A stretch of 44,853 nucleotides of DNA from IMG/VR virus record IMGVR_UViG_3300045988_031537; one strand, written 5' to 3'. Of the stretch, positions 1,205-41,341 are shown piece after piece. A program made the translations under genes and the position numbers. The stretch's first letter is position 1. Each line of letters starts with the position of its first letter. This stretch comes from a virus. Lineage: Duplodnaviria > Heunggongvirae > Uroviricota > Caudoviricetes. Below the pieces are notes generated by a model. It had not been told where the DNA came from. It was given only the letters and a program-made list of their open reading frames with translations, and did not search any database.

Positions 1205-1396
1205 TCACTTCTCTTTGACATTCGAGTTGCAAGCCCAGATTAAAATAAATACCCACGGCAGCAGAACCCAGCCAAGAAACAGATTGGCCATGAATATCGC
1301 TAATTTCGCTTTATGACCCCGCATATGGGCCACTAAAAACGGGATAAAATAAACTAAAACGATAATGATTAAGAAGAACATAGTAATACCTGTCAT
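1205..1396 (-). CDS. Small membrane protein resembling the superinfection immunity (Imm-like) family
   Basis: Internal ATG at 1396 preceded by AGGAG; product has ...YFIPFLVAHMRGHKAKLAIFMANLFLGWVLLPWVFILIWA, matching the YF.P..AH.RGH....NLFLGW..GW...IWA pattern of that family as I recall it. Upstream part of the track ORF is not protein-like. Confidence 0.5.
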   Translation of the reverse strand: MTGITMFFLIIIVLVYFIPFLVAHMRGHKAKLAIFMANLFLGWVLLPWVFILIWACNSNVKEK

Positions 1397-1438
1397 GGTG
1401 TAGCTCCTGTTTGAGTTAACATTGTTGGTGTAAGTGAA

Positions 1439-1467
1439 TAGTATCCTATTATGTTGGGGTGCGCAAG
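1439..1467 (-). promoter_or_regulatory. Sigma70-like promoter, TTGCGC-N17-TACTAT, reading leftward into the accessory island
   Basis: Reverse complement gives TTGCGC, 17-bp spacer, TACTAT; about 30 bp nearly identical to the promoter at 24103-24131. Confidence 0.45.
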
Positions 1468-4713: not shown

Positions 4714-5460
4714 TTACTCGCTGCGTACTTTTCCGTTACATAGCTCCGTGAACTCAGCTATTATCTCGCTGTTGGCCACCATCCACTCACTGGCCCCATC
4801 AAAGTTGCTTAGCTCCGCCGATACGTGTGTGCGGTGAAAGTATCGCTCTAACATACGGCAACGAGCACCATTAGCGTCTTGGTATACACTAAGCACATGG
4901 AACTCAAACGGAGTGGAGCGCTCCAGTTGAGCAAGTCGTTGTTTTAACTTGTTAGTAATACCTATTTTAAGGTATTTACCACATGCAGAAAGAAGTCCGT
5001 AAATGTACCCTGGTTTGTTAGAGTCGTAGCCGTGTCTGGCGCACGACGGACAACCATGCCTGTGCACTAAAATATTATTAACCCCTGTAGCAAACACCCC
5101 GTGGTCATTACATGCGCGTATCGCTTTGGAGATTTTGTTTAGGTACGCGCCTCCTTCAAAACCCACGAACGTATATCGAACATCCGCGGATTTTATTTGC
5201 TCAATAACGGCATCTGTATTCTTGCGGTAGGCAGCCGCCGCGGCTTCTCGACTGCATTTCATACACCCGTGTCCTCCAGAGATGCTACGGGCTATAGCTG
5301 AAAATTCACCGTGGGACGGGCAAATAAGTCTAATCTTGCTAGTCGAGTCAATGTACTCACTACCGTCATAACTTGCGGATATTGTGTACTTCCCGCCGTG
5401 TTTCTTTAAATCTAACTCGACCATTTTCTTCCGTTCTTCCCAACCAATTTTAACGCTCAT
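4714..5460 (-). CDS. Putative homing endonuclease with T5orf172/GIY-YIG-like C-terminal domain and two N-terminal Cys/His repeats
   Basis: C-terminal PGYIYGLL...GKYLKIGITNKLKQRLAQL; N-terminal repeats CPSHGEF...CMKC and CNDHGVF...CPSC; AAGGAGGAG RBS before the start. Antisense to the surrounding tail genes. Confidence 0.55.
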   Translation of the reverse strand: MSVKIGWEERKKMVELDLKKHGGKYTISASYDGSEYIDSTSKIRLICPSHGEFSAIARSISGGHGCMKCSREAAAAAYRKNTDAVIEQIKSADVRYTFVGFEGGAYLNKISKAIRACNDHGVFATGVNNILVHRHGCPSCARHGYDSNKPGYIYGLLSACGKYLKIGITNKLKQRLAQLERSTPFEFHVLSVYQDANGARCRMLERYFHRTHVSAELSNFDGASEWMVANSEIIAEFTELCNGKVRSE

Positions 5461-5593
5461 ACCTACCTCGCTCCTCCTTGTTGTAGTAGCATGCTATTCG
5501 ACGACGCCCTGTTTGGCAACTTAAACGCGGTGACGCTATGCTTCTCACCATGGTAACATTGACCTTAACATCCAATCTATCGAGGTTCTAATA

Positions 5594-6968: not shown

Positions 6969-9505
6969 TCCTGCACTACACGCGAAATGCCAACGGTGTT
7001 TTCGACCGCACAAAACACGTCGGGATGCCGATGGAGTTTGTCGTTAACCGTATTCCTGACGGCGTGCCTGTGCGCGTCTACCTCGGCGAAATTGGTGATG
7101 ATACAGACGTAACGGACGACTTCGAAGCGCTTAAAGACGAAGACGCGGTGTATCACATAGTAGAAGGAGCTGGTGGGGGTGCGCTTGTAGTAGGTGCGCT
7201 TGTTGCGTTGGTCGTCGTCGCGGCTACGGTTTTACTAACTAAGAAACCGAATCTGGCGGTAACAGCGACAAATAACCAAGCAAAATCCGCTAATAACAGC
7301 CTTACTGACCGCTCCAACAAGCCGCGTCCTTACGAGCGCTCCTATGACATCTGCGGGACTGTGCAGACAATCCCTAATGACCTGATGCAGACGTATAAGG
7401 CGTTCGACAATATCGGGAATTTACTAGAATACTCGTACTATGACGCCGGGCGGGGGCATCTACATATTGAGGCTGATGGGGTCACAGAGGGCGATACCCT
7501 GATAAGTGACATCACAGGCTCCTCTGTTGCCGTGTATGCGCCATATACCTCCCCGAACAACACCACATCTCCGCAGCTACAAATCGGGGACGTCATTGAC
7601 CAGAAACTCTATGTGACATACTCCAACGACGACGTTGACGGTATTGTACTGAAAGCGCCAAACGACATCGGGGCTAACCCAAGCGCCGATGGCACCGCGA
7701 AACGTATTTCAAACACCGGCTACATCTATGACCCGTCGGGTGACTCCGCTTTTTCTGAGTTTCTTAGCGTCGGTGATGTCGCGGTGCTGAGCAACTTTGA
7801 CGTTGCAGGCGTCACTAACCTTAACGGCTCGTTTGAGGTTTTATATGTCGATGACTTCGAAGTAAGACTGGCGGTGAATGGTGCTTCTAATTGGGACGCG
7901 TTAACCAGTGGGCAGACGTATACCTTAACAGAGCGTTCTGATACTTTCATTGGTCCGAGAGACACCTACGACGTATCCCTGACCGACTGGTATTACATGG
8001 TGCGCGGAGAAGTTGACCGGGTGCTTGCTAACGTTTCCGGGCAGAACGGCCTCTACAAATACGACGGTGGTTATAGCCGAGCCAATGTAACCGTAGAACT
8101 CCAGTACCAGATGATCGATTCTCAGCGTAACCCGATTGGTGATATCTACACCGTACAAGGCACCGTTACCGGTAATAGCACGGATTACGTTGGCACGTCT
8201 ATCTACGGGCAATTGCCTACTGCATCGCGTTTCCGCGCCCGTATGCGTCGTATAACGAATTTTGATAAGGACTACGACGGTACCGTAAGCGATGAGATAA
8301 CATTCATCAACCTGTACGGGCAGTCTCTGGACACAACCCCGCACTACGGCAACCGGACAACAGTACATTGCACCCGTAAACAGACACCGCGGGCCGCTAG
8401 TATTGACAACCCTGAACTGCGCATGATTGCGACTGAGATGTGTTACAAATACCTCGGAAATGGGGTATTCGATACGGTAATGACACCTAATACGCAGGCG
8501 GTGCAATCACTAATTCGACTGGCCCGCGACCCGGCGGTAGGTAACTTAGAACTGACAACCGCAAACATGGACAAGTTACTTGCCGTGCAGGAAGAGATTG
8601 AATCCTATTTTGGCAGCGAATTAGCGGGACAATTCTGCTACACGTTCGACGACTACGACACCACGATGCAGGACATCGTTCAGACTATAGCCGAAGCCGT
8701 GTTTTGTACTGCGTACCGTAAAGGTGCAGACATTATGCTGCGTTTCGACCGTCCGGTTGCAGGGCCTGAAATGGTGTTCACCCACCGCAGTAAAACTACC
8801 GGTACAGAGAAATGGACGCGCACATTCAACGATTCTACTACCTACGATAGCCTGTCGTTCTCGTACATCGACCCGGATACAAACGTACAGGAAACTATTT
8901 ATATCCCGGAAGAACTCGGTGCAAACACTGAGGAATACGAATCGAAAGGCGTGCGCAACTATCAGCAGGCGTACTGGCTGGCGTGGCGTCGCTATCAGCG
9001 CAATGCGTTAAGTAAAGTTGTCGTAGAGTTCGAAGCTACCGAAGAGGGGGCACTCGCTACACCGGGCGGCGTAATCAGTGTCGTTAAAGGCTCGCGTATC
9101 GCGCCGCAGGATGGCTATGTTGTTGCCGTTAATGGTCTTACGCTGACACTGTCACAGCCGGTTACGTTTACCCCCGGCGATGACCACTCCATCATCCTCA
9201 AGAAGCGCGATGGCTCCGTGCAGAGTATTTCTGTTATCAAAGGAAACCACGACCGCGAAGTGATTATGCTCTCCGCGCCGGAGGAAGCAATATACACGGG
9301 GAATAGCGCACTAAAAACTGAGTTTTCATTCGGCAACGAAGCAAGGCATAATGCACAGAAGATAGTTGTTTCTTCAATCGACCCGGGCGACGACCGCACG
9401 GTCAAGATTACAGGCTACAACTATGACGACGGATTCTATAAATACGACGGCGTCGCTCCATACGGTAGCGGTTTCTCCGACGGATTCAGCAATGGTTTTA
9501 ATTAA
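6959..9505 (+). CDS. Tail tip / central fibre protein (lambda J-like) with an N-terminal lambda I-like segment
   Basis: 848 aa; FRARMRRITNF resembles the lambda J IRMRRMT motif; N-terminal ~100 aa has a hydrophobic Gly/Ala/Val stretch like lambda gpI. Track start is TTG; the true start may be ATG 7025 or 7031. Confidence 0.65.
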   Translation: MAIILHYTRNANGVFDRTKHVGMPMEFVVNRIPDGVPVRVYLGEIGDDTDVTDDFEALKDEDAVYHIVEGAGGGALVVGALVALVVVAATVLLTKKPNLAVTATNNQAKSANNSLTDRSNKPRPYERSYDICGTVQTIPNDLMQTYKAFDNIGNLLEYSYYDAGRGHLHIEADGVTEGDTLISDITGSSVAVYAPYTSPNNTTSPQLQIGDVIDQKLYVTYSNDDVDGIVLKAPNDIGANPSADGTAKRISNTGYIYDPSGDSAFSEFLSVGDVAVLSNFDVAGVTNLNGSFEVLYVDDFEVRLAVNGASNWDALTSGQTYTLTERSDTFIGPRDTYDVSLTDWYYMVRGEVDRVLANVSGQNGLYKYDGGYSRANVTVELQYQMIDSQRNPIGDIYTVQGTVTGNSTDYVGTSIYGQLPTASRFRARMRRITNFDKDYDGTVSDEITFINLYGQSLDTTPHYGNRTTVHCTRKQTPRAASIDNPELRMIATEMCYKYLGNGVFDTVMTPNTQAVQSLIRLARDPAVGNLELTTANMDKLLAVQEEIESYFGSELAGQFCYTFDDYDTTMQDIVQTIAEAVFCTAYRKGADIMLRFDRPVAGPEMVFTHRSKTTGTEKWTRTFNDSTTYDSLSFSYIDPDTNVQETIYIPEELGANTEEYESKGVRNYQQAYWLAWRRYQRNALSKVVVEFEATEEGALATPGGVISVVKGSRIAPQDGYVVAVNGLTLTLSQPVTFTPGDDHSIILKKRDGSVQSISVIKGNHDREVIMLSAPEEAIYTGNSALKTEFSFGNEARHNAQKIVVSSIDPGDDRTVKITGYNYDDGFYKYDGVAPYGSGFSDGFSNGFN

Positions 9506-13852: not shown

Positions 13853-14140
13853 CTAACTATAATAGTTTGCTATTAGGTCGTCAACCTGTTTAAACGAACC
13901 AACGACAAAAACATTTGCACCGCGTTTACGCATCCGCTCATGCTCACGTAACTGGTGCGGGTCAGGCTTCGTGTTTTCGTCTTTCTTAACCTCGACGAAC
14001 CAGACGATGCCGCCGGGGAGAATTACCAGCAGGTCAGGGGCGCCGGAGCGCCCCTCGTACGAAAGTTTACGAACGAGGCCCCCCAGGGCCTCGAATCGCT
14101 CTTTTGCGTATTTCTGCACACGCCCCTCAGGCGTACTCAT
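13853..14140 (-). CDS. VRR-NUC domain nuclease
   Basis: GAPDLLVILPGG...VEVKK matches the VRR-NUC PD-(D/E)XK core. Confidence 0.7.
   Translation of the reverse strand: MSTPEGRVQKYAKERFEALGGLVRKLSYEGRSGAPDLLVILPGGIVWFVEVKKDENTKPDPHQLREHERMRKRGANVFVVGSFKQVDDLIANYYS
13856..13884 (-). promoter_or_regulatory. Sigma70-like promoter, TTGACG-N17-TATAGT
   Basis: Reverse complement reads TTGACG, 17-bp spacer, TATAGT; shares the CTAACTATAATAGT block with the 20647 promoter. Confidence 0.4.
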
Positions 14141-14225: not shown

Positions 14226-14353
14226 TCCGGCACCCACAGATAAATTGCGATGAACATACCCAATACGGCTACCATCATGCCGTATTGCCCCTCGTGACAG
14301 TAGACACCGGCGGCGAATCCCGCCAGTACCGCGATAATCAGTTTACTTAGCAT
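14222..14353 (-). CDS. Small hydrophobic peptide (43 aa)
   Basis: MLSKLIIAVLAGFAAGVYCHEGQYGMMVAVLGMFIAIYLWVPE; ATG overlaps the 3' end of the polymerase gene. Confidence 0.3.
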   Translation of the reverse strand: MLSKLIIAVLAGFAAGVYCHEGQYGMMVAVLGMFIAIYLWVPE

Positions 14354-17300
14354 AGCGCTTCATCTCCGCACCTTCCGCTACAAGAGGGAACCCCCCCGCC
14401 CACTCTGGCAACGCACACATTAATTTTTCCAGTTCAGGCACCGTGTAATCCGGCGTATCTGGAGTTTCACATACCAGTTCATCGTGTACCGAAAGCACGA
14501 TGGGATACCCGCCACCCTCAACATTAATCATCGCATATGCGAGTAAATCACGGCACAGCGCCTGAACAATGTTTTCGCAGGCTTTGCCGCCGTGTGTGTA
14601 CAGGGTAGTCCATTGGCGGGTTAACTGGTTTTCACCTTGGTACTTGATTCGCACATTCGTGTTTACCCGTCCGTCTTCGTCTGTTTCTTTTGTCACGCTA
14701 ACGCCGATTCCTGGATACGAGAGGATACGGCCCGACGGCAACTCCATACACAACCACCAACCGGGAACCTTCCTACCGGATGAATCGGTTTCTACTGTTC
14801 TCCAGATTCGGATAGCGCGCTCGCCATTCTTGCGCAGATGCGCCCCCGCCCAAAATTCACGACCCGGATTTCTTACAGCGGCTAAAATACCGTCTTTGAG
14901 GTCGCGCCAGAACGCTACTGTTTCCGGGTGTGACTCGCGCCACATACGCTTGATTGCATCGCAGGTGCGCCACACTTTCTTGTCCAGAATATACGACGGT
15001 CGGTCGTCCTTTTCACCTGGATGCGGGGGGTGCTTGGCTTCCTGGATGCGCGCCCACTCGTACCCGCGTGCAGTGGCCGACCAGATATGGTCCGGGAATG
15101 TACCGTCCATTGTTTTTGCCATCTCAATAAGGTCAAGACCTAGGTTTTTAGCAAACGTAACGAACGCTCCAACGCCGCCCTCGTAGCCGAGGCCAAGCTC
15201 GCAGTTATGCGCCACAAGAAAGCCAGAGTCTGAGGCTATAAGAAAACGGTTGCCGTCTTCCACATCAATCAGGTCGTACACCGGCTCGCAGTAGGTTAAT
15301 TTCCCGCTCAAGTTCAGCAATGCGGGCAACGGCTGCATCATACTTTCGTTGAAGCTCGGGTATTTGCCGTCTGTTTCGGCAGTTTTCAGAACGGCTGACA
15401 AACCGAATGTTTCCAGGTTCGTAGTTACCGTCTGTGTCGATTCTATCCATTTCGAGGTTCGGGTCATCCCAGCCTTCCAGAGTTTGAACATATCTAAGAA
15501 AAGACCTTTTATCAGTCCTCCACTGGTCGAATACCGTGATGCCTCTTGCCCCATAGTTTTTATAACCCTTATCCCTGGGGCTTGTTGTTCGCGTGATCGC
15601 CGCTGACAGCCGGTTGAGTAATCGCGTTCTGTGTGCATCATCCGGCATTGCGTCTTCGTAGCAGAAATACTGTTTACGATATTTTTTTGTTGCTTCAAGG
15701 GCGCAGCGGTTGCATTGAGTGGTTTTACCCGCTCTGACGTTGTCATAATAGACCCGCCCCGGCATCTCTCCGCAATCACATTGGACGAGTAGTTGTCTTT
15801 GGCCTTGTCGTTTTGGCAACTCGCGCAGGATAACCAAGCGTCCATACCTCTCTCCAGGGCTAGGCCCATCATATATCTGTTTGAAGCGAGTTGCTTTGCC
15901 TGCTTCCAGGAATGCGCCAAGATTTTGTGATCTTCGGTCATTAGCACCCCGTCCACATTTATTACCGGTTTCCACCCCATAAGGTGCGCGCCTTTTGTAT
16001 TCACCCATTTTTCACCGCTCCATACTTTATCTGTTGATGTAACCGCCATAATATCCTTAAATCCGCCATCGGTCAAAACCTGGGTATGACGGTGAAGGCA
16101 CGCTTTACCAATCTGGCGCAAGTCTTTACGTTCTTTCTTAATGTCATCAGGGTCCATACCGAACATCTTGCCTGCGGTTACACAGTAAATATCCAGTCCG
16201 GCGCGGAACGTATCGAGCGCGGTTTCTTCACCTGCCAGCCACGCAAGCCCGCGGCCTTCAACGTTAGAGTAATCGGCGACGACAAACTTATGCCCGGCTT
16301 CCGGTATTATGCAGCTACGCACAGTAGATGCCGTTAGTTTGGCTACATCAAAACGGCGATGGGCGCGGCCCTTAAGTAACGCTGAAATGCCTTTATCCAG
16401 CTCATCATCATGATAGTAACCGCGTGCCAGGTTCTGCGGCTGGAAGCCTTTACCTGCCCATCGCAGAGTACGTTTTGCCCCACCGTACTGCAAGCAACCG
16501 CGACGGCGGTCGTCCGAAGAGCGGCCCCGCAGCAGCGGGTTATATTTCGTGGACGCCGTGGACGCGGCCCCGAGGCGCATTTCGATAATCGTGCGTGCGT
16601 CGTCCGGTAAATCATCGTCGGCCAGCAGGTCATTCAGCGTTGACTTCTGCACGTTGTGGATTCGGTGCGCAGGGGCAAGTTCGCGCAGAATCGGCAGAAA
16701 GTCTTTACCAGTAAGCGAGCCGCCGTATTTGCGTTGGGCCTCTTCCTGTAACTGCGCTTTGTGTTTCTCCACGGCTTCAATCGCGGCTTCTGCCAGTGCC
16801 ACGTCAACCTTAAACCCGCGGTCGTTGATTAACTGGTCCAGTTCCAGTACACGGTCCTCGAACTCCGAGTTACCCCAACGTGGCAGCTTATGGAATACCT
16901 CACGCATCGCGGTAATATCGCTCACGGCGTACTTGATGAACAACGCCCATTCATCAGGGTGCGTCTCGGCGGTGTAGCGTCTGATTTTGTAGTTCTTCGG
17001 TGTCGGTTTAGAGAAACGCTGAATCAGCGCCTTGCCACGCTTATCCTTCGCATTGTCAGCAGACACGCCCAGCACTTCGCACAATGAGTCAAGTGAACCC
17101 GGCAATGCATGACGAAACGCCCAAATCATCGTATCAATGGTGTTGCGTACCGGAATATCAAAGCCCCAGCAGTGCTTCATTATGAGCCTGTCGAACATTG
17201 AGCCGTTGTGCCACACCATCTTAATGCGACTGTTAGGCTTAACCAGACGACGTAACGCGCGGTGCAAATCGCCCGGCATGTCACTGCCGTCGGTGCAATC

Positions 17301-17441
17301 CCACACCTGCACAGGCTCGTCGTCAAAAGCGTATGTACAGATAAGCACTTCGGTAGTTGGATGCTCGGCGTAAGCGTAGGAGCCGACTTTCTTTAAATCG
17401 GCTTCGGAGAATGTTTCAAAGTCTAAGAACAGGTAACTCAT
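14343..17441 (-). CDS. Family A DNA polymerase (3'-5' exonuclease plus polymerase domains) interrupted by an intein
   Basis: Exo motif DFETFS; polymerase motif A ADYSNVEGR, motif B RQIGKA/CELGLGYEGG split by the intein, motif C VHDELV. Confidence 0.85.
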   Translation of the reverse strand: MSYLFLDFETFSEADLKKVGSYAYAEHPTTEVLICTYAFDDEPVQVWDCTDGSDMPGDLHRALRRLVKPNSRIKMVWHNGSMFDRLIMKHCWGFDIPVRNTIDTMIWAFRHALPGSLDSLCEVLGVSADNAKDKRGKALIQRFSKPTPKNYKIRRYTAETHPDEWALFIKYAVSDITAMREVFHKLPRWGNSEFEDRVLELDQLINDRGFKVDVALAEAAIEAVEKHKAQLQEEAQRKYGGSLTGKDFLPILRELAPAHRIHNVQKSTLNDLLADDDLPDDARTIIEMRLGAASTASTKYNPLLRGRSSDDRRRGCLQYGGAKRTLRWAGKGFQPQNLARGYYHDDELDKGISALLKGRAHRRFDVAKLTASTVRSCIIPEAGHKFVVADYSNVEGRGLAWLAGEETALDTFRAGLDIYCVTAGKMFGMDPDDIKKERKDLRQIGKACLHRHTQVLTDGGFKDIMAVTSTDKVWSGEKWVNTKGAHLMGWKPVINVDGVLMTEDHKILAHSWKQAKQLASNRYMMGLALERGMDAWLSCASCQNDKAKDNYSSNVIAERCRGGSIMTTSERVKPLNATAAPLKQQKNIVNSISATKTQCRMMHTERDYSTGCQRRSREQQAPGIRVIKTMGQEASRYSTSGGLIKGLFLDMFKLWKAGMTRTSKWIESTQTVTTNLETFGLSAVLKTAETDGKYPSFNESMMQPLPALLNLSGKLTYCEPVYDLIDVEDGNRFLIASDSGFLVAHNCELGLGYEGGVGAFVTFAKNLGLDLIEMAKTMDGTFPDHIWSATARGYEWARIQEAKHPPHPGEKDDRPSYILDKKVWRTCDAIKRMWRESHPETVAFWRDLKDGILAAVRNPGREFWAGAHLRKNGERAIRIWRTVETDSSGRKVPGWWLCMELPSGRILSYPGIGVSVTKETDEDGRVNTNVRIKYQGENQLTRQWTTLYTHGGKACENIVQALCRDLLAYAMINVEGGGYPIVLSVHDELVCETPDTPDYTVPELEKLMCALPEWAGGFPLVAEGAEMKRYAK
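15204..16100 (-). mobile_element. Intein (299 aa) inserted in polymerase motif B
   Basis: Starts CLHRHTQVLTDGG (block A), has TEDHKILA (block B, TxxH), VYDLIDVEDGNRFLIA (block F) and ends LVAHN followed by Cys+1; codons checked at both junctions. Confidence 0.7.
15265..16008 (-). CDS. HNH-family homing endonuclease encoded inside the intein in a different reading frame
   Basis: Cys cluster CDCG...CNRC, AP2-like GYKNYGARGITVFDQW, HNH-like MDRIDTDGNYEPGNIRFVSRSENCRN; frame is -1 relative to the polymerase. Confidence 0.6.
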   Translation of the reverse strand: MGEYKRRAPYGVETGNKCGRGANDRRSQNLGAFLEAGKATRFKQIYDGPSPGERYGRLVILRELPKRQGQRQLLVQCDCGEMPGRVYYDNVRAGKTTQCNRCALEATKKYRKQYFCYEDAMPDDAHRTRLLNRLSAAITRTTSPRDKGYKNYGARGITVFDQWRTDKRSFLRYVQTLEGWDDPNLEMDRIDTDGNYEPGNIRFVSRSENCRNRRQIPELQRKYDAAVARIAELEREINLLRAGVRPD

Positions 17442-18182: not shown

Positions 18183-18211
18183 AACTATAATAGCCAACTA
18201 TTCAGGTGTCA
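18183..18211 (-). promoter_or_regulatory. Sigma70-like promoter, TTGACA-N17-TATAGT
   Basis: Reverse complement reads TTGACA, 17-bp spacer, TATAGT; upstream of the SSB-like gene. Confidence 0.45.
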
Positions 18212-18216
18212 ACACT

Positions 18217-20114: not shown

Positions 20115-20615
20115 TTATTCTTCTTCGAAATACTTGTTCTTGATTGCTGTCAGGCGTTCCAGGTACTCGGCCAGGTCTTCGTCTTTAATCGCGGCAATCT
20201 TCATCTTCTTACCGGTGAACTCTTCCAGCAGTTCATCAGAATCGTCGCACGCGGCATCGCTCGGACCTTCGTTAATTGCATCGTCGATAGCCTGAATATG
20301 GTCACGAAGAGACTGGTAATCGACTTCTTCTTTCTCTTCTTCTGGTTCTGGCGTCGACTCCTCTACTTTAGCTTTACGCGGCTTACGTTTTGGCTTCTCT
20401 TCTTCTGCCGGTTTAGTGTCGACGATGTCTTCACCTTCAACCGGGATTTCTTTTGTTTCTTCTTTAATACTTTCAGAGAACTGCTCAATTTTATGAGCGG
20501 CTACTGCGGCAGCCTCTTTGGCAGTAGTTGGCGCGAACTGTTTCGCACTATTCGCAGCAATCAGTTCATGTGCAACTACGAAACGTTCCAGTAATACTAA
20601 GAATTTCTCTAACAT
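20115..20615 (-). CDS. Hypothetical strongly acidic protein
   Basis: 166 aa with long Glu/Asp-rich stretches; first gene after the 20647 promoter. Confidence 0.5.
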   Translation of the reverse strand: MLEKFLVLLERFVVAHELIAANSAKQFAPTTAKEAAAVAAHKIEQFSESIKEETKEIPVEGEDIVDTKPAEEEKPKRKPRKAKVEESTPEPEEEKEEVDYQSLRDHIQAIDDAINEGPSDAACDDSDELLEEFTGKKMKIAAIKDEDLAEYLERLTAIKNKYFEEE

Positions 20616-20646
20616 TTGTTTCTCTCCTCTCGTTTGGTATGGGCTA

Positions 20647-20675
20647 ACTATAATAGTGAACTATTCACATGTCAA
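20647..20675 (-). promoter_or_regulatory. Sigma70-like promoter, TTGACA-N17-TATAGT
   Basis: Reverse complement reads TTGACA, 17-bp spacer, TATAGT. Confidence 0.45.
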
Positions 20676-20719
20676 TGGGCTTTTCTAAAATAATTAATAT
20701 GATACTATTCACATATCAA
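20660..20719. promoter_or_regulatory. Two 16-bp direct repeats ACTATTCACAT(G/A)TCAA (candidate operators) in the divergent promoter region
   Basis: Copies at 20660-20675 and 20704-20719 overlap the leftward promoter and the TACTAT -10 of the rightward promoter for the HTH gene. Confidence 0.45.
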
Positions 20720-20739
20720 CTAACTAAGGAGTAATTGTC

Positions 20740-20955
20740 ATGCAACCATCTGAACTAGGCATCCGTGTAGAAAAACGCCGTAAAGAACTCGGCATCTCCC
20801 AGCGCCGTCTGGCGGTGCTGACCGGGGTTTCCCAGGGCGCAATTAACCAGCTGGCACTTGGGGTAACCCAGGACGTCCGCCCGGCAACGCTGTTTAAACT
20901 GGCGGAAGTGCTGGAGGTAGACGCCAAGTGGCTGGCGCTAGGTGAAGGGGCTTAA
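20740..20955 (+). CDS. XRE-family (Cro/CI-like) HTH transcriptional regulator
   Basis: LGISQRRLAVLTGVSQGAINQL helix-turn-helix; AAGGAG RBS; the only plus-strand gene inside the replication block. Confidence 0.7.
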   Translation: MQPSELGIRVEKRRKELGISQRRLAVLTGVSQGAINQLALGVTQDVRPATLFKLAEVLEVDAKWLALGEGA

Positions 20956-20969
20956 TGCCCCTTTCTTTT
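20946..20969 (+). terminator. Rho-independent terminator
   Basis: GGGGC-TTAAT-GCCCC followed by TTTCTTTTT. Confidence 0.6.
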
Positions 20970-23270: not shown

Positions 23271-23504
23271 TTATTCCAGGTCTTCTAAAGTAGCAGCCAT
23301 TCCGCGAACTTCAGCAACAGCACCATATTTCCCACCAACGTTTTTCACGACACCCGATTTAACCAGTACCTTCAACGACCCTTCAATAATGGCGGAACTA
23401 TAGTACTTAAAATAACTACGGCGCAAGTCCATAACGCTGCACGACCCTTTTTTGCGGGTTAACGAAACGACCGCCGTAAATACGCGTGACTGGAACTCGG
23501 TCAT
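23271..23504 (-). CDS. Hypothetical protein
   Basis: 77-aa ORF between the HTH gene and the primase. Confidence 0.4.
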   Translation of the reverse strand: MTEFQSRVFTAVVSLTRKKGSCSVMDLRRSYFKYYSSAIIEGSLKVLVKSGVVKNVGGKYGAVAEVRGMAATLEDLE

Positions 23505-23671
23505 TTAACGTTCTCCTTAATCCACGCTTCCACTTTCTCTGGGTCAAACGTACCGGGCTGGCGGCGGCCCATAATGCGGATACAACAATCCGGGAACTTC
23601 CCACTCTTTAACCAGTTATTAAGCGTGCGGCGAGTAACCCCAATACGCTCAGCTACCTCATTCTGTGTCAT
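23501..23671 (-). CDS. Small HTH DNA-binding protein (AlpA/excisionase-like)
   Basis: ATG at 23671 with GAGGG RBS; MTQNEVAERIGVTRRTLNNWLKSGKFP. Confidence 0.5.
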   Translation of the reverse strand: MTQNEVAERIGVTRRTLNNWLKSGKFPDCCIRIMGRRQPGTFDPEKVEAWIKENVK

Positions 23672-23703
23672 TCTCAAACCCTCATTATCAGTCAACGAAA
23701 CCA

Positions 23704-23776
23704 AGTATACATTGCGAATAATGGGAAATCAAACATAATCGCACCTATTGACATTATGGAAATCTTCGTTTAAGGT
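23704..23776. promoter_or_regulatory. Divergent early promoter pair: leftward TTGATT-N17-TATACT, rightward TTGACA-N17-TAAGGT
   Basis: Hexamers with 17-bp spacing on both strands, between the leftward HTH gene and a noncoding stretch. Confidence 0.4.
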
Positions 23777-24011
23777 GCTTCTATATCTTAGTTACTTTTA
23801 TTCTTGTTCACCTTGTAAGAATGTTTAACCCGTGCGTCAAGCAAAGGGTTAAACACAGGCTTACTGAACATTAGAATTATTGTAACTTTCCTTCCTTAGT
23901 ATCTCCGGTTGCCCTGGGCAAGCTCTATTCTCATCGGCAGCATATCTCTTAAGTATCTGATTTTCTTAATGTGCCGTAGATTCGCAACCGTAAAAATGTA
24001 ACGATTAGTGG

Positions 24012-24035
24012 GCAGGCTTAGGGCCTGCCCTTTAG
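24012..24035 (+). terminator. Rho-independent terminator-like hairpin
   Basis: GGGCAGGC-TTAGG-GCCTGCCC followed by TTT. Confidence 0.5.
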
Positions 24036-24102
24036 TTACCAAGTAATAAGAATAAAGGCACAACCCTACCTGAAGAATCACAACGGCAACGTAACTATTT
24101 TC

Positions 24103-24131
24103 TTGCACACCCCAACATAATAGGATACTAT
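24103..24131 (+). promoter_or_regulatory. Sigma70-like promoter, TTGCAC-N17-TACTAT
   Basis: Consensus-like hexamers; about 30 bp nearly identical to the promoter at 1439-1467. Confidence 0.5.
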
Positions 24132-24165
24132 TCACTTATCGAAACGAGACAGATGAGTGAGGGTT

Positions 24166-25329: not shown

Positions 25330-25358
25330 TTGCACGCTAGGATAGAATAGGTTACTAT
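25330..25358 (+). promoter_or_regulatory. Sigma70-like promoter, TTGCAC-N17-TACTAT
   Basis: Consensus-like hexamers with 17-bp spacing. Confidence 0.5.
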
Positions 25359-25387
25359 TCATTTACACAAACGAGAGGAGAGAGAAG

Positions 25388-28904: not shown

Positions 28905-28935
28905 TTTTTTTTTATCTATTTTCCGTAATGACTAG

Positions 28936-28964
28936 TTGACTATTATCCTAGACCCTATTATATT
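28936..28964 (+). promoter_or_regulatory. Sigma70-like promoter, TTGACT-N17-TATATT
   Basis: Hexamers with 17-bp spacing upstream of the 28999 gene cluster. Confidence 0.45.
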
Positions 28965-34308: not shown

Positions 34309-34330
34309 AGCCCCGAAAGGGGCTTTCTTA
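34309..34330 (+). terminator. Terminator-like hairpin
   Basis: AGCCCC-GAAA-GGGGCT followed by TTCTTAT. Confidence 0.5.
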
Positions 34331-34334
34331 TAGT

Positions 34335-35411
34335 ATGCTATTAACTTTAGCACCACAGGGTTTAGCTATGAGCTTACTTACATCTCTAATCAGCCACCAG
34401 ATATGGCTGCAACGCACCGCATCCGGTGAAGTGAAAGACCTCGCACCGTTCCTTCAGGAGATGCGGGACGAAATCAAACGGCAGGTGCTGTTATTCGGCG
34501 ACGACGGGCGGAGCACCGCGCGGCTGAATAAATTGTTACGCGACCTCGAAGAAGCATTAACAGGACTTACAGGCGGCTGGCAGACGAAGCTGACAGAAGA
34601 CCTTAAGGAACTGGCAGCATATGAAGCGGAGTGGAACGTAAAGACACTGACCGCCAACGTAGACGCGGAATTTGTTACGCCTACCGCTGAACAGGTGTGG
34701 GCCGCTGCCGAGTTTCAGCCGCTCTCATTAAGCGACAAGCCTGTCGACTTCACTAAGCTGATGAATGGTTGGGGCGAAACAGAAGTAGCGCGCCTGGTAA
34801 CTGGCGTTAAGATGGGTTTCGTACAAGGCCAGACCACACGGCAGATTGTTAAGAATGTCGTAGGCGCGGGTGGGCTGGCTGACATCTCTGAGCGAAACGC
34901 AACTACTGTAATTCGCACCGCGCTTTCCCACGTATCCAACGAAGCCCGCAACGAGACGTACCGCCAGAACGACGACATCATCGAGAAGTACGAGTGGGTA
35001 TCAACACTGGACAGCCGTACCAGTACGATTTGCAGAGCCAGAGACGGAATGACGTGGGAAATTGGTAAGGGGCCGATGCCCCCCGCCCATCCGAATTGTC
35101 GAAGTACCACTGCACCGGTAATCAGTTCGGAGTTCGACTTCCTAGATAAAGGTGCAAAACGCGCGGCTAAGGGTGCGGACGGCGGTATGCAGGTAAGCGC
35201 AGACACCACCTATTACGAGTTCCTGAAACAGCAACCGGCATGGTTCGTGGATGAAGCACTCGGACCTACCCGCGGTGCTATATTCAGGAATAGTGGGATA
35301 TCCCCAGAGGAATTCCGGGTAATATCCGTCGACGCTTTTGGTAGACCTTTAACCTTGAAGGAGATGGCGGCGTTAGATAACAGGGTTGCTGAATATCTTA
35401 GGTCGGTATAA
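34335..35411 (+). CDS. Head morphogenesis protein (Mu F / SPP1 gp7-like)
   Basis: PPAHPNCRS motif; position after portal. Start may be ATG 34368. Confidence 0.7.
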   Translation: MLLTLAPQGLAMSLLTSLISHQIWLQRTASGEVKDLAPFLQEMRDEIKRQVLLFGDDGRSTARLNKLLRDLEEALTGLTGGWQTKLTEDLKELAAYEAEWNVKTLTANVDAEFVTPTAEQVWAAAEFQPLSLSDKPVDFTKLMNGWGETEVARLVTGVKMGFVQGQTTRQIVKNVVGAGGLADISERNATTVIRTALSHVSNEARNETYRQNDDIIEKYEWVSTLDSRTSTICRARDGMTWEIGKGPMPPAHPNCRSTTAPVISSEFDFLDKGAKRAAKGADGGMQVSADTTYYEFLKQQPAWFVDEALGPTRGAIFRNSGISPEEFRVISVDAFGRPLTLKEMAALDNRVAEYLRSV

Positions 35412-36597: not shown

Positions 36598-37119
36598 TTA
36601 TTTAAATCGCGCAGGCATTAACACCATAAAGGCCGTGTTTGAAAATTGTATTTTGCATCCTCTGGTTTGGTCCTGGAAATCAAAACGAGCAATTTCATTT
36701 TTGTATGCCTTAGAAATCTTGTACGCGTCTGCCAAATAACGCAGGGTGAACCCTATACTATCGACAACACCCGGTGTGATGTGCGCCACGCGTCTCCAGT
36801 CAGGAAAGTTTCCTTCTACAACATCTACCGGAAGTGTACATATAAGCGCACGATTATCGTCATAGAAAGATACACTGCCGTTGTCGTGGTTTACCTCCGC
36901 GTAGTTAAATTTAGAAGGCTCTCTCCCTTTGATGTCTATGAGAGTCCCTTTCTCAACGTTGGTCTTCACATTGTCGCAGAACAATCTATGACCGTCCGTA
37001 GACACTATCAATCCTTCAGGGTCTATGTAAAAAGCGTTCAAATAGTAGCGAACATCATTTTTAGCCCTGCATATTTTCGCCCCTACATACGCAGGGAAAG
37101 TAATTACTGTAGTAACCAT
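36598..37119 (-). CDS. Truncated DNA polymerase III beta sliding clamp (DnaN)-like protein
   Basis: NDVRYYLNAFYIDPEGLIVSTDGHRLF and EGNFPDWRRV match E. coli DnaN domain II (QDVRYYLNG...VATDGHRLA; DGRFPDYRRV); C-terminus AFMVLMPARF resembles YVVMPMRL. Only 173 aa versus about 366 for DnaN. Confidence 0.6.
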   Translation of the reverse strand: MVTTVITFPAYVGAKICRAKNDVRYYLNAFYIDPEGLIVSTDGHRLFCDNVKTNVEKGTLIDIKGREPSKFNYAEVNHDNGSVSFYDDNRALICTLPVDVVEGNFPDWRRVAHITPGVVDSIGFTLRYLADAYKISKAYKNEIARFDFQDQTRGCKIQFSNTAFMVLMPARFK

Positions 37120-37146
37120 TTCTCATCTCCTGTTTAAGTTAACTGA

Positions 37147-37175
37147 ATAGTACCCTATTATGTTGGTGCGCGCAA
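37147..37175 (-). promoter_or_regulatory. Sigma70-like promoter, TTGCGC-N17-TACTAT, for the clamp-like gene
   Basis: Same family as the promoters at 1439 and 24103. Confidence 0.45.
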
Positions 37176-37448
37176 ACTATTTATTTACGTATTCCAGTTA
37201 TTCCACTCAATTGTAAATGTTGGAATAAACTATTCGAATATTTGACTTTTCACTAAAAATATGATAAGCTCCACCTGAGCTTGTGAAGTATGAGCAAGCG
37301 ACCGCGGCGCGGCAGGTAACGGAGCTGGACGTAAGTCCTGAGTGTAGTTACGCTGACGCGTTCGGAAGGGCCATACTCTATTGCTTGTGTAAAAAGTAAC
37401 TGGTTTACTGAGATTACGCCGTTTCTATGTTTAAATGATAAGGACTAG

Positions 37449-37475
37449 CGCCCCGCTTTAAGGCGGGGCTTTACT
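37449..37475 (+). terminator. Terminator-like hairpin
   Basis: GCCCCGC-TTTAAG-GCGGGGC followed by TTTACTTAT. Confidence 0.45.
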
Positions 37476-37493
37476 TATCGAGAAAGGGGAAAC

Positions 37494-37880
37494 ATGAATC
37501 TTAAAGCAACTGTCGTAGCCGGAGCATGTTTCGTCGTCCTAGCCTACGCACACGGCATCTATCAATACCGCAGCGGCTGGGGTGAAGGCCGTGCTAATCT
37601 CGTTTCGCAGCAACAGCAGAAAGCACAGGCTGAGCTGACGAAGAAAACACAACGGCAGCAGCAGGATGAATCAAAGGCCGCCGCCGCTGACAACGAAGGC
37701 AAGACGAAATCAGAGGTGATTACCCGTGAAGTCGTTAAGTACATTAAAACGCCTGGCCGCAGCGTGTGCACTTTCGACGATGCTCGCGTCCTGCTCAAGT
37801 CCCACGCCGTTGCCAACGCCAATTCCATCCCCGGATACGACGATGATGCAGCCGCCGTGCAAACTGGCACCGCCAAGTAG
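37494..37880 (+). CDS. i-spanin (Rz-like)
   Basis: N-terminal transmembrane segment, Gln-rich coiled coil, embedded o-spanin ORF. Confidence 0.6.
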   Translation: MNLKATVVAGACFVVLAYAHGIYQYRSGWGEGRANLVSQQQQKAQAELTKKTQRQQQDESKAAAADNEGKTKSEVITREVVKYIKTPGRSVCTFDDARVLLKSHAVANANSIPGYDDDAAAVQTGTAK

Positions 37881-37989: not shown

Positions 37990-38071
37990 TTGCCTTGTAT
38001 GTTGGAATAATTTATTCTTGACATGTAAATCCGGGAGGCCCGGATTCCAACGTCCAGGGGACATACTGACT

Positions 38072-38773
38072 ATGAATCGTTTTTTACACTATCCGTTCCA
38101 GGAAGAAGCTGGGGCAGAAGATAAATCTGGCGGTGGCGACGCTCCAAAAATGTTCACAGCCGAAGAAGTTCAGGCGCTGATTGAGAAAGAAGTTGCCGGA
38201 CTTAAGGCCAATCAGGAAGCATTGCTGGCGGAGAAGAAAGAAGCCGCCCGTAAAGCAAAAGAGGCCGAAGAGGAACGTCAGCGCGCGCACCAGGAGGCGC
38301 TAAAAGCCGCCGGTAAGATGGACGAGTTCGAAAAGACGATTCGTAGCCAGTATGACCCGGTGTTAGCCGAGAAAGATGGTCGCATCTCCAAAATGGCTGA
38401 GCGCATCCTCGGCAGCGAACGTAAAGCGGTGTTAGGCTCTTTCGCAGGTGACTTTATTACCCCGGAAGCAGTAGACATTCTTGCTCCGTTCGTTAAGACT
38501 GAGTTCGAAGGTGATGATGTGGTTACTAAGTTTGTTGGGCCAGACGGCGGTGTAATCACGACTGACCCTGAACAGTTCCGCAAATACCTGCGCGAACACA
38601 AAGCGTTTTCGCATTTGATTAAAGCAAATGCAGCTTCCGGCGGCGGGGCTTCCGGTGGCAAAGGCGGCGGGGCCGCACCAGCGTTTAAAGACATGAGTGA
38701 AGCGGAGCGTTTAGCTCTGTATAAATCGAACCCTGCCGAATTTGAACGGCAACTTAAAGCCCTGAGGAAATAA
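38072..38773 (+). CDS. Scaffolding protein
   Basis: Highly charged, predicted helical (...EALLAEKKEAARKAKEAEEERQRAHQEALKAAG...); directly upstream of the major capsid gene. Confidence 0.6.
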   Translation: MNRFLHYPFQEEAGAEDKSGGGDAPKMFTAEEVQALIEKEVAGLKANQEALLAEKKEAARKAKEAEEERQRAHQEALKAAGKMDEFEKTIRSQYDPVLAEKDGRISKMAERILGSERKAVLGSFAGDFITPEAVDILAPFVKTEFEGDDVVTKFVGPDGGVITTDPEQFRKYLREHKAFSHLIKANAASGGGASGGKGGGAAPAFKDMSEAERLALYKSNPAEFERQLKALRK

Positions 38774-40609: not shown

Positions 40610-40828
40610 TGCGACGGCCCTTCGGGGCCGTAATAAGGAAAGGTCATGGCAGATAATTATGTAATCCGCGAAAAATACACCCACGTTGATGTTGTTGACG
40701 GTCAGGTAATGCCGGTTCGCGGTGTTGTAGAAGCGGATGAACTGGTTGCGGCTCAACCGGACAACGAAGAAGCGCACAACAACGGCGGTGGTACTAAGCG
40801 TCGTCGCCGTAAGTCAGAGGAATAATTT

Positions 40829-41341
40829 ATGCCGCTAATGGTGGAAACTGGGGTGATCGTCCCAAATGCCGACAGTTACATTAGTCTGGCTGACGCCCGC
40901 GCGTTAGCAGCTAATTATGGCCTTGAGCTGCCGGAAGACGATACCGCAGCAGAGGTGGCCTTACGCAACGGTGCTACTTATGTAGGGCTTGCAGAACCGC
41001 AGATGTGCGGTCGTCGAGTATCCGCCGAACAGTCTCTTGCATACCCCCGCACCGGCGTTACGTTAAACGGGTTCCCGGTGGCCAACAACGCCATTCCGAA
41101 ACAGGTGATTCTTGCGCAGGTAATCGCTGCCGCTACATATGGCGAGGGCACCGAAGTCCGGGCTAACTCAGACGGCCGCGCCGTGCAGACTGAGCGTGTC
41201 GAGGGTGCGGTAACAGTGACCTACTTCAACAATGGCAACAGTGGCGCTACGACCGCGATTACCGCTGCTGACGACGCTTTACGCCCGTTATTGTGTGGTG
41301 GTCTTAACAATGGTTTCTCGTTTAACGTGTACCGGGGTTAA
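40829..41341 (+). CDS. Putative head-tail connector/adaptor protein
   Basis: Position between capsid and tail genes; N-terminal ...YISLADARAL... resembles adaptor proteins. Confidence 0.4.
   Translation: MPLMVETGVIVPNADSYISLADARALAANYGLELPEDDTAAEVALRNGATYVGLAEPQMCGRRVSAEQSLAYPRTGVTLNGFPVANNAIPKQVILAQVIAAATYGEGTEVRANSDGRAVQTERVEGAVTVTYFNNGNSGATTAITAADDALRPLLCGGLNNGFSFNVYRG

Follow-up and report, generated by a model that had tools for sequence, protein, structure and literature searches.

We describe here a 14-bp inverted repeat, AATAG-N4-CTATT, in the 44,853-nucleotide virus record IMGVR_UViG_3300045988_031537 (the whole of this stretch is called the window below), which is the genome of a Kagunavirus, a virulent phage of Escherichia coli. 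The motif is real and its excess lies far above chance; single copies are placed in the core of nine predicted sigma-70-type promoters. With somewhat more confidence than doubt, we propose that the dyad serves as operator for a small dimeric repressor of the phage, most likely the 71-amino-acid (aa) homologue of phage 434 Cro encoded at 20740-20955.

An inverted repeat in the core of nine predicted promoters

When sites are oriented by the direction of transcription, the element common to the two main promoter classes of this phage is the dyad AATAG-N4-CTATT. Its perfect form occurs seven times in the window against 0.03 copies expected, and with at most one mismatch there are 11 copies (1.1 expected). 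It is by far the most frequent palindrome of the 5-N-5 type in the window, the runners-up having three copies and being mostly terminator stems. The non-coding share of the window is 7.8%, and it holds six of the seven perfect dyads and three of the four one-mismatch dyads. Two of the latter, at 20696 and 28931, are conserved and join the perfect copies to give nine assigned promoter sites (Table 1). Each of them lies within the -35 to -10 region of its predicted promoter, with a start codon 26-61 nt downstream.

Table 1. Coordinates of dyads, direct repeats and helix-turn-helix genes in the window
Feature	Sequence	Position	Strand	Promoter and placement	Genes downstream
Putative operator O-left	AATAGTGAACTATT	20652..20665		perfect dyad; spacer of leftward class-B promoter 20675..20647 (-35 TTGACA 20675..20670, -10 TATAGT 20652..20647)	acidic 166-aa gene (20615..20115) and exonuclease operon
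Putative operator O-right	AATATGATACTATT	20696..20709		one mismatch (AATAT arm); overlaps -10 TACTAT (20703-20708) of rightward promoter, with TG at 20700-20701	Cro-like gene
Direct repeat 1	ACTATTCACATGTCAA	20660..20675	+	reverse complement of TTGACAtgtgAATAGT: leftward -35 hexamer, four variable bases and one dyad arm	
Direct repeat 2	ACTATTCACATATCAA	20704..20719	+	O-right arm and start region of the Cro-like gene's transcript	
Cro-like gene (71-aa XRE/HTH_3 protein, proposed repressor)		20740..20955	+		
Putative operator	AATAGTATCCTATT	1437..1450		over -10 of minus-strand class-A promoter 1466..1438 (TTGCGC 1466..1461, TACTAT 1443..1438)	superinfection-immunity gene (1396..1208) and exonuclease gene
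Putative operator	AATAGTTTGCTATT	13861..13874		spacer of minus-strand class-B promoter TTGACG-N17-TATAGT (13884..13856)	64-aa gene and helicase operon
Putative operator	AATAGCCAACTATT	18189..18202		spacer of minus-strand class-B promoter TTGACA-N17-TATAGT (18212..18184)	single-stranded DNA (ssDNA)-binding/annealing protein and DNA polymerase operon
Putative operator	AATAGGATACTATT	24119..24132		over -10 of plus-strand class-A promoter 24103-24131 (TTGCAC 24103-24108, TACTAT 24126-24131)	small genes without assigned function
Putative operator	AATAGGTTACTATT	25346..25359		over -10 of plus-strand class-A promoter 25330-25358 (TTGCAC 25330-25335, TACTAT 25353-25358)	small genes leading towards holin and endolysin genes
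Putative operator	ACTAGTTGACTATT	28931..28944		one mismatch (ACTAG); encloses -35 TTGACT (28936-28941) of TTGACT-N17-TATATT	small genes, NinH, terminase region
Putative operator	AATAGTACCCTATT	37146..37159		over -10 of minus-strand class-A promoter 37175..37147 (TTGCGC 37175..37170, TACTAT 37152..37147)	173-aa gene (37119..36598)
Possible extra site	AGTAGCATGCTATT	5485..5498		one mismatch; over -10 of TTGCCA-N17-TAGCAT; about one such site expected by chance	
HTH_17 gene (56 aa)		23501..23671	-	predicted promoter TTGATT-N17-TATACT (23732..23704)	first gene of helicase-primase operon

The dyad lies over the -10 hexamer in four promoters, in the spacer between -35 and -10 in three, over the -35 hexamer in one and over the extended -10 of the regulator's own gene in one. 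In class A (TTGCRC-N17-TACTAT), the TA of N4 and the CTAT of the following arm together make the hexamer TACTAT, so that the dyad overlies -10; these promoters match just 7 of 12 consensus positions, and three of them have the spacer stretch CCAACAT, outside the dyad, in common. In class B (TTGAC(A/G)-N17-TATAGT), the dyad fills the spacer and abuts TATAGT. The three class-B promoters, all with a dyad in this place, are the three best matches to the sigma-70 consensus in the whole window. Occurrence in at least three registers relative to -10 and -35 fits a separate operator and not a polymerase recognition element. Judged by established promoter biology, a symmetric element that shifts among -35, spacer and -10 of ordinary sigma-70 promoters would be the signature of an operator for an occluding repressor. 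An activator would require a fixed upstream position and a MerR-type activator over-long spacers, and the spacers here are 17 bp.

The initial annotation had centred the promoter family on ACTATTCA and had pointed to two 16-bp direct repeats, ACTATTCACATRTCAA, ahead of the Cro-like gene. The genome-wide family is borne out: ACTATTCA occurs seven times (1435-, 18197+, 20660+, 20704+, 24127+, 25354+ and 37144-) against 1.22 copies expected, a number reached by none of 100 shuffles. Both repeats are exact and both promoter classes are present at all seven positions given for them (Table 1). Details of the two classes hold in part. The class-A sequence TACTATTCAC is exact in two of the four promoters, the other two ending in T or G, and AATAGTT, described in the class-B spacer, is read along transcription in two of three promoters; in the third it stands on the opposite strand because the element is palindromic. 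The core of the family is better described as an inverted repeat, of which ACTATTCA is one arm with two flanking bases. To this we add the ninth site at 28931-28944 and the origin of repeat 1 as the reverse complement of a -35 hexamer and a dyad arm.

Conservation was followed in 37 related IMG/VR loci and one GenBank relative (38 loci, with 36 distinct intergenic sequences). At orthologous sites the arms AATAG and CTATT are essentially unchanged and N4 varies, the 20652 site having TGAA, CGAA, CTAA, CAAA, CTAG or CGAG among the relatives. Expressed as information content per position, the arms are as high as the -10 hexamer and N4 is low. The inner G and C of the dyads are invariant in kagunaviruses, and the outer base is T or G. 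About 25 distinct relatives keep the 28931 dyad, although its adjoining spacer varies; counterparts of this dyad occur in Jerseyvirus and Cornellvirus. The stretch between arm and -35 is variable and about 15 of the 36 distinct sequences have a 1-bp insertion inside repeat 1, so just 8 of the 36 keep the 16-bp direct repeat in register (15 or more matches of 16). It was therefore not retained as a conserved unit.

In the intergenic region between the acidic-protein gene and the Cro-like gene, two dyads face two divergent promoters. The mismatch of O-right is the same in all relatives, and this G-to-T change itself makes the TG of the extended -10, TGaTACTAT. An alternative rightward promoter may be read as TTCACA (20664-20669) and TAAAAT (20686-20691) with N16, the start region of which is covered by O-right; O-left and O-right together would block this promoter as well. 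Aligned with each other, the 45-bp blocks 20640-20684 and 20684-20728 agree at 24 of 45 positions, as might be left by an ancient tandem duplication of one promoter-operator module. The very acidic 166-aa protein (20115-20615, minus strand) is the first gene product of the strongest promoter of the genome. It has a lysine-rich centre and no Pfam family, is kept in all three genera at 40-80% identity, always divergent from the XRE gene, and may be a host-takeover or DNA-mimic protein.

Related dyads are present in the two other genera compared. Jerseyvirus wksl3 has nine dyads with at most one mismatch (1.3 expected), located at orthologous promoters, one of them in an additional, fourth register with the -10 hexamer TATTAT beginning at dyad position 11. 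Here the outer T and A are invariant (TAATAG...CTATTA, seven of seven sites) and inner changes are tolerated (AATCG, ATTAC), as in Cornellvirus. AATAG-N4-CTATT itself is absent from Cornellvirus VSiP and STP-1. These phages have TAWTA-N6-TAWTA instead, at 6-7 sites against 0.08 expected, all of them in core promoters, over -10 or round -35; its 14-bp core, approximately ATTAG-N4-CTAAT, differs from the Kagunavirus dyad by one base per half-site. A home-made PHIRE-like 16-mer scan of Cornellvirus was drowned by GC-rich coding repeats, and intergenic k-mer and palindrome counts served better. Jerseyvirus and Cornellvirus both infect Salmonella and their dyads differ; the element therefore goes with the lineage of the phage, not with its host, and both a host factor and direct reading by RNA polymerase become less likely.

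Two more one-mismatch dyads were noted in the window. The possible extra site at 5485-5498 overlaps the promoter, TTGCCA-N17-TAGCAT, of a 248-aa gene (4714-5460, minus strand) with T5orf172/MUG113 and CapR-like domains. The gene is inserted on the opposite strand between the tape measure and distal tail genes, is not found in the closest relative (PQ423993) and looks like a moron. The second, TATAGTATGCTATT at 34329-34342, directly follows a terminator hairpin (34309-34324) and covers the ATG (34335) listed for the head-morphogenesis gene. A -35 hexamer is not apparent there, and the dyad is identical base for base in Jerseyvirus wksl3 (locus L042, 42386-42399); it may be a roadblock, a promoter or a chance occurrence.

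The Cro-like protein and other candidate binders

The 3.5 kb of the window round the intergenic region matched 438 phage records, every one of them from Guernseyvirinae. The top match is Escherichia phage vB_VIPECOMC04 (Kagunavirus, 92% identity), whose annotation corresponds to the window gene for gene. Leftward from the intergenic region follow the genes for the acidic protein, an exonuclease, an ssDNA-binding/annealing protein, the DNA polymerase and a helicase. Rightward lies the gene for the 71-aa "transcriptional regulator", convergent with the helicase-primase gene, and further on are small genes, lysis genes, terminase and structural genes. The largest open reading frames (ORFs) code for the tape measure protein, tail proteins, DNA polymerase and helicase-primase. 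No gene for an RNA polymerase, an integrase or a CI-like repressor was found in the ORF list, the relative's annotation or Pfam scans; the phage is therefore virulent and is transcribed by the host polymerase. Scans of the window for Rfam families and tRNA genes gave no matches.

The proposed repressor matches Pfam HTH_3 (PF01381) with 47.1 bits (cut-off 23; E = 2.5e-12). Its similarity to 434 Cro is supported by phmmer (E = 2.2e-6, residues 6-68 aligned), by 40% identity over the full length and by the common size of 71 aa. The AF2 model has the same five-helix fold (pLDDT 86) and is matched by Foldseek to 2cro/3cro with TM 0.77-0.85; it superposes equally well on restriction-modification C proteins, P22 C2 and SinR. 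The XRE gene is monocistronic, with a terminator-like hairpin at 20944-20964, and is found in all three genera, the proteins of Jerseyvirus wksl3 and of Cornellvirus VSiP and STP-1 having 48% and 41-43% identity to that of the window. The recognition helix (residues 29-43) is identical in 38 of 39 Kagunavirus-type sequences. The gene's own promoter has a conserved weakened dyad beside a perfect one. 434 Cro binds as a dimer to 14-bp dyad operators, and one of its glutamines touches the outermost A of the 434 operator. That glutamine (column Q32) is invariant in alignment A1, and every dyad here begins with A.

The likeness extends to the operators: in both phages a 14-bp dyad with A first and T last overlaps core promoters, and one site lies in a divergent intergenic region, at the promoter of the regulator gene itself. 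The half-sites differ, AATAG-N4-CTATT here against ACAA-N6-TTGT in 434. The arrangement differs too, with single operators over at least nine promoters across 44 kb in place of two triple clusters (OR1-3, OL1-3), and the phage described here is virulent and has no CI partner, integrase or lysogeny switch. The lambdoid lysis-lysogeny switch is marked by a divergent cI gene, an integrase and clustered triple operators. Here the divergent neighbour of the XRE gene encodes the acidic protein without a Pfam domain, no integrase is present, and the operators are single except for one pair 44 bp apart.

We infer that the XRE protein would dimerise, bind the dyads and repress, and that it would thereby influence the timing of transcription. 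The host sigma-70 RNA polymerase would transcribe the phage from promoters at least nine of which have one dyad each in the core, where bound repressor would block the polymerase by occupying the promoter. Rising levels of repressor would lower expression of the operons for replication, recombination, immunity and small genes, and likewise of the repressor gene itself, whose operator has the weaker AATAT arm. The promoters of the helicase-primase operon and of the structural genes, which have no dyad, would stay free. The initial annotation had limited such control to early transcription; the set of dyads spans replication, recombination, superinfection-immunity and lysis-region operons as well. 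Its proposal of one phage regulator acting on both strands, possibly the product of 20740-20955, fits the evidence, with the reservation that a second helix-turn-helix (HTH) protein in the window competes as the binder.

Several points weigh against the XRE protein. A literature search found no binding, footprint or transcript-mapping study of this protein or of the dyad sites. Jerseyvirus XRE differs from that of Kagunavirus at three of four presumed base-contacting positions (SQSLITHL against SQGAINQL), yet the arms AATAG/CTATT are the same; its helix is closer to the Cornellvirus TQSAISHL, whereas its arms match those of Kagunavirus. A partial answer is that only the shift in strict positions, outer T against inner G, accompanies the helix difference. 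Many small proteins of the window have no detectable domain, and an unrecognised DNA-binding protein among them is possible. The one RNA-seq study of a Kagunavirus, a coarse time course of K1B4, puts the DNA polymerase and superinfection-immunity genes late, which is not obviously in line with early shut-off of their promoters; an HTH gene is among its four earliest and a "specific DNA binding" gene is in the middle class (PMC12645636). Judged from gene order alone, the early gene (_008) is probably HTH_17 and the middle one (_004) XRE, and the sampling, at 5-120 min (PMC12645636), is too coarse for testing the repressor model.

In a search of genome contigs for XRE homologues outside the subfamily with the same recognition helix, only relatives of at most 50% identity were found, apart from two short partial matches of 65%. 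No perfect dyad lies upstream of them, and the few one-mismatch sites near gene starts are no different from chance.

The competing HTH protein, of 56 aa and Xis/MerR-like (HTH_17; 23671..23501), is an unlikely binder in our judgement, although it and the XRE protein are the only HTH proteins detected in the window. According to this explanation, the dyad is still an operator and its binder is expressed from a promoter without a dyad. Homologues of HTH_17 are confined to Kagunavirus and Jerseyvirus, the genera with the exact AATAG-N4-CTATT, and absent from Cornellvirus, which lacks the exact motif. The wksl3 protein is 87.5% identical to that of the window, above the 48% of XRE, and the HTH gene among the four earliest of K1B4 is probably this one (PMC12645636). 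The presumed recognition helix (residues 13-22), however, varies within kagunaviruses, one major allele having R15Q and L17I. In the loci L006 and L025, TRR is replaced by STM or SPM and N19R is added, and five perfect dyads are still present in each of them. A related promoter dyad occurs in Cornellvirus in the absence of any HTH_17 protein, and the promoter of the HTH_17 gene itself has no dyad. Domain-only HTH_17 proteins, for example excisionases, are usually monomers on direct repeats, a mode of binding that fits a perfect dyad poorly.

Alleles of HTH_17 differ sharply among kagunaviruses that are otherwise about 90% identical, residues 13-15 being TRR, TRQ, STM or SPM. A DNA-binding helix seldom varies in this way, and diversifying selection may be at work, or exchange of a module together with the mosaic upstream region. 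That region, 23672-24100, is a stretch of 430 bp without a plausible gene between the HTH_17 operon and a class-A promoter. It folds better than shuffled sequences (z = -2.8) and has a plus-strand terminator-like hairpin at 24010-24030 with no ORF upstream. It is mosaic, being present in about 14 of 38 Kagunavirus loci and in Jerseyvirus wksl3, and may encode a small RNA. A separate HTH_17 target was sought there and rejected: the only notable dyad, TGTTTAACCC-N14-GGGTTAAACA (23822-23855), falls where a mosaic segment, common to only about one third of the relatives, is least conserved.

A still less probable binder would be a host transcription factor or nucleoid protein, or a phage protein without a recognisable DNA-binding domain. 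Host factors often bind AT-rich dyads, the majority of the small phage proteins here are without a Pfam match, and the screen of Cornellvirus covered only 10 small proteins. The distribution of the motif speaks against the host, as it is the same in Kagunavirus on E. coli and Jerseyvirus on Salmonella but different in two genera that both infect Salmonella. To our knowledge, the operator consensus of none of the E. coli regulators CRP, ArgR, LexA and Fur fits the dyad.

We give even less weight to the explanation that no regulator is involved, and that the sites are either a family of paralogous promoters spread by duplication or a "phage-specific promoter" read directly by RNA polymerase. The motif was published in the latter sense (see below), one dyad arm overlaps -10 in class A, and the CCAACAT spacer common to three class-A promoters is what duplication would produce. 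On the other side, the ORF list and annotation contain no phage RNA polymerase gene, and a symmetric element in at least three registers against -10 and -35 is impossible for a polymerase recognition element. Sigma-70 reads little in the class-B spacer, yet the arms are conserved there like -10 while N4 drifts. The differing dyads of the two genera on Salmonella are a further argument against direct recognition.

That the recognition units are ACTATTCA and the two 16-bp repeats, bound head-to-tail, is very improbable: the repeats are exact in the window and have two-mismatch relatives at 18197 and 24127, but they are seldom in register among the relatives and resolve into a -35 hexamer, variable bases and one dyad arm, and ACTATTCA, unlike the dyad, does not occur at every site, being missing at 13861. 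We also rejected a restriction or methylation target; such sites are avoided in phage genomes, and the dyads are concentrated in promoters.

Additional features of the genome

A second dyad, ATGTTGGAATAA-NN-TATTC (GAATA-N3-TATTC), was found at 37222-37235 and 38004-38017, with a weaker copy at 40819-40832. With at most one mismatch it has five matches against 0.16 expected. The copies at 37222 and 38004 each stand immediately before a TTGAC hexamer, in the two non-coding regions that precede the spanin and structural genes, and GGAATAATTTATTCTTGACA is also present in Cornellvirus VSiP (intergenic 7644-7794). This dyad may be a late-promoter or activator site.

The hexamer TTGACA at 38018 is followed not by a -10 hexamer but by the hairpin AATCCGGG-AGG-CCCGGATT (region 38018-38072). 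The counterpart in Cornellvirus, AGCCGGG-TGG-CCCGGCT, keeps the stem through changes on both sides, and a conserved AACGTCCAGGGGACATACTGACT runs from the hairpin to the ATG at 38073; the region looks like a conserved leader structure. Between a predicted promoter TTGACT-N17-TAAGCT and the gene at 37494 (region 37244-37493) lies a leader of about 210 nt. The leader ends in a strong hairpin like that of an intrinsic terminator (37450-37469, GCCCCGC-TTTAA-GGCGGGGC and then TTT), without a match in Rfam, which suggests that read-through into the late genes is regulated.

The DNA polymerase ORF (14343-17441, minus strand) codes for 1032 aa in a single piece, and Pfam matches just parts of the family-A polymerase model. 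In PQ423993 the polymerase has 732 aa and is flanked by two separate HNH endonuclease genes. The extra part of about 300 aa may be an intein or a fused homing endonuclease.

Published labels, known systems and meaning

The motif itself has already been published, as the promoters reported for the Kagunavirus fBC-Eco01 are of the same sequence family (TGAATAGTATCCTATTATGT, ATAATAGTTTGCTATTATGT, TGAATAGTACCATATTAATT and others). They were identified with PHIRE and described as seven "phage RNAP promoters" (RNAP, RNA polymerase), PP1-PP7, with the consensus tgAATAGTa-ccTATTat-T, and Table S2 of that work contains the same sites, including the site at the XRE promoter (PMC9825357). Seven PHIRE promoters are also given for vB_EcoS-Golestan (PMC7203180). 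Both papers assign the promoters to a polymerase encoded by the phage, and in both the dyad, its shifting placement inside sigma-70 promoters and the link to an HTH gene are unremarked (PMC9825357, PMC7203180). Promoters of the T7 type go with the phage's own RNA polymerase and form an asymmetric block at a fixed distance from the start. Here the element is symmetric and shifts in position, and the label "phage RNAP promoter" does not fit, for neither fBC-Eco01 nor Golestan has an RNA polymerase.

C proteins of restriction-modification (R-M) systems (C.AhdI, C.BclI, C.Esp1396I) are small dimers of XRE fold, among the top structural matches of the XRE protein, and regulate themselves through dyads overlapping their own promoter. 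They control one or two promoters of an R-M operon through paired C-boxes, activating and repressing, whereas here single dyads stand at many operons and there is no R-M context. A C-protein gene lies directly upstream of a co-regulated restriction endonuclease gene; the XRE gene is followed by its own terminator and is convergent on the helicase-primase gene.

The antiterminators AlpA and lambda Q share with class B a protein-binding element between -35 and -10 (PMC7969949, PMC9371919), and antitermination by HTH_17 in the manner of AlpA was considered from this position and rejected. The AlpA element, GGGACG, is asymmetric, is occupied by a single monomer and works only with a sigma-dependent pause downstream (PMC7969949, PMC9371919), whereas the element here is a dyad that is also found over -10 and -35. 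AlpA itself exceeds 140 residues, and its N-terminal part forms a ring (PMC9371919). The candidates here, of 71 and 56 aa, are without a ring domain for the RNA exit channel beside the HTH. The feature is most likely a Cro-type operator regulon in a virulent phage, an ordinary type of switch used unusually widely.

No new principle is involved, promoter occlusion by a small dimeric HTH repressor being textbook knowledge. When phages are sought for therapy or biocontrol of E. coli and Salmonella, kagunaviruses and jerseyviruses are among the most frequent isolates, and their gene regulation is essentially unstudied. Reading the motif as an operator corrects the published label and yields a testable map of nine regulated promoters with a candidate master regulator. 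Strong repressible promoters for the host polymerase have potential use in phage engineering, and the three genera form a natural series for the joint change of a Cro-type helix and its operator.

More tentatively, and with less confidence than for the operator itself, we suggest that throughout the strictly virulent Guernseyvirinae one Cro-type repressor, left from a lost lysogeny module, may run most non-structural transcription through a dyad of 14-16 bp placed in differing registers in about nine sigma-70 promoters. Arm quality and placement over -10, spacer or -35 would grade the order of shut-off, and the half-site would have drifted between genera (AATAG, TAATAG, TAWTA) along with the recognition helix. 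If this is true, these phages would possess a compact and evolvable genome-wide timing circuit of a kind undescribed for virulent coliphages.

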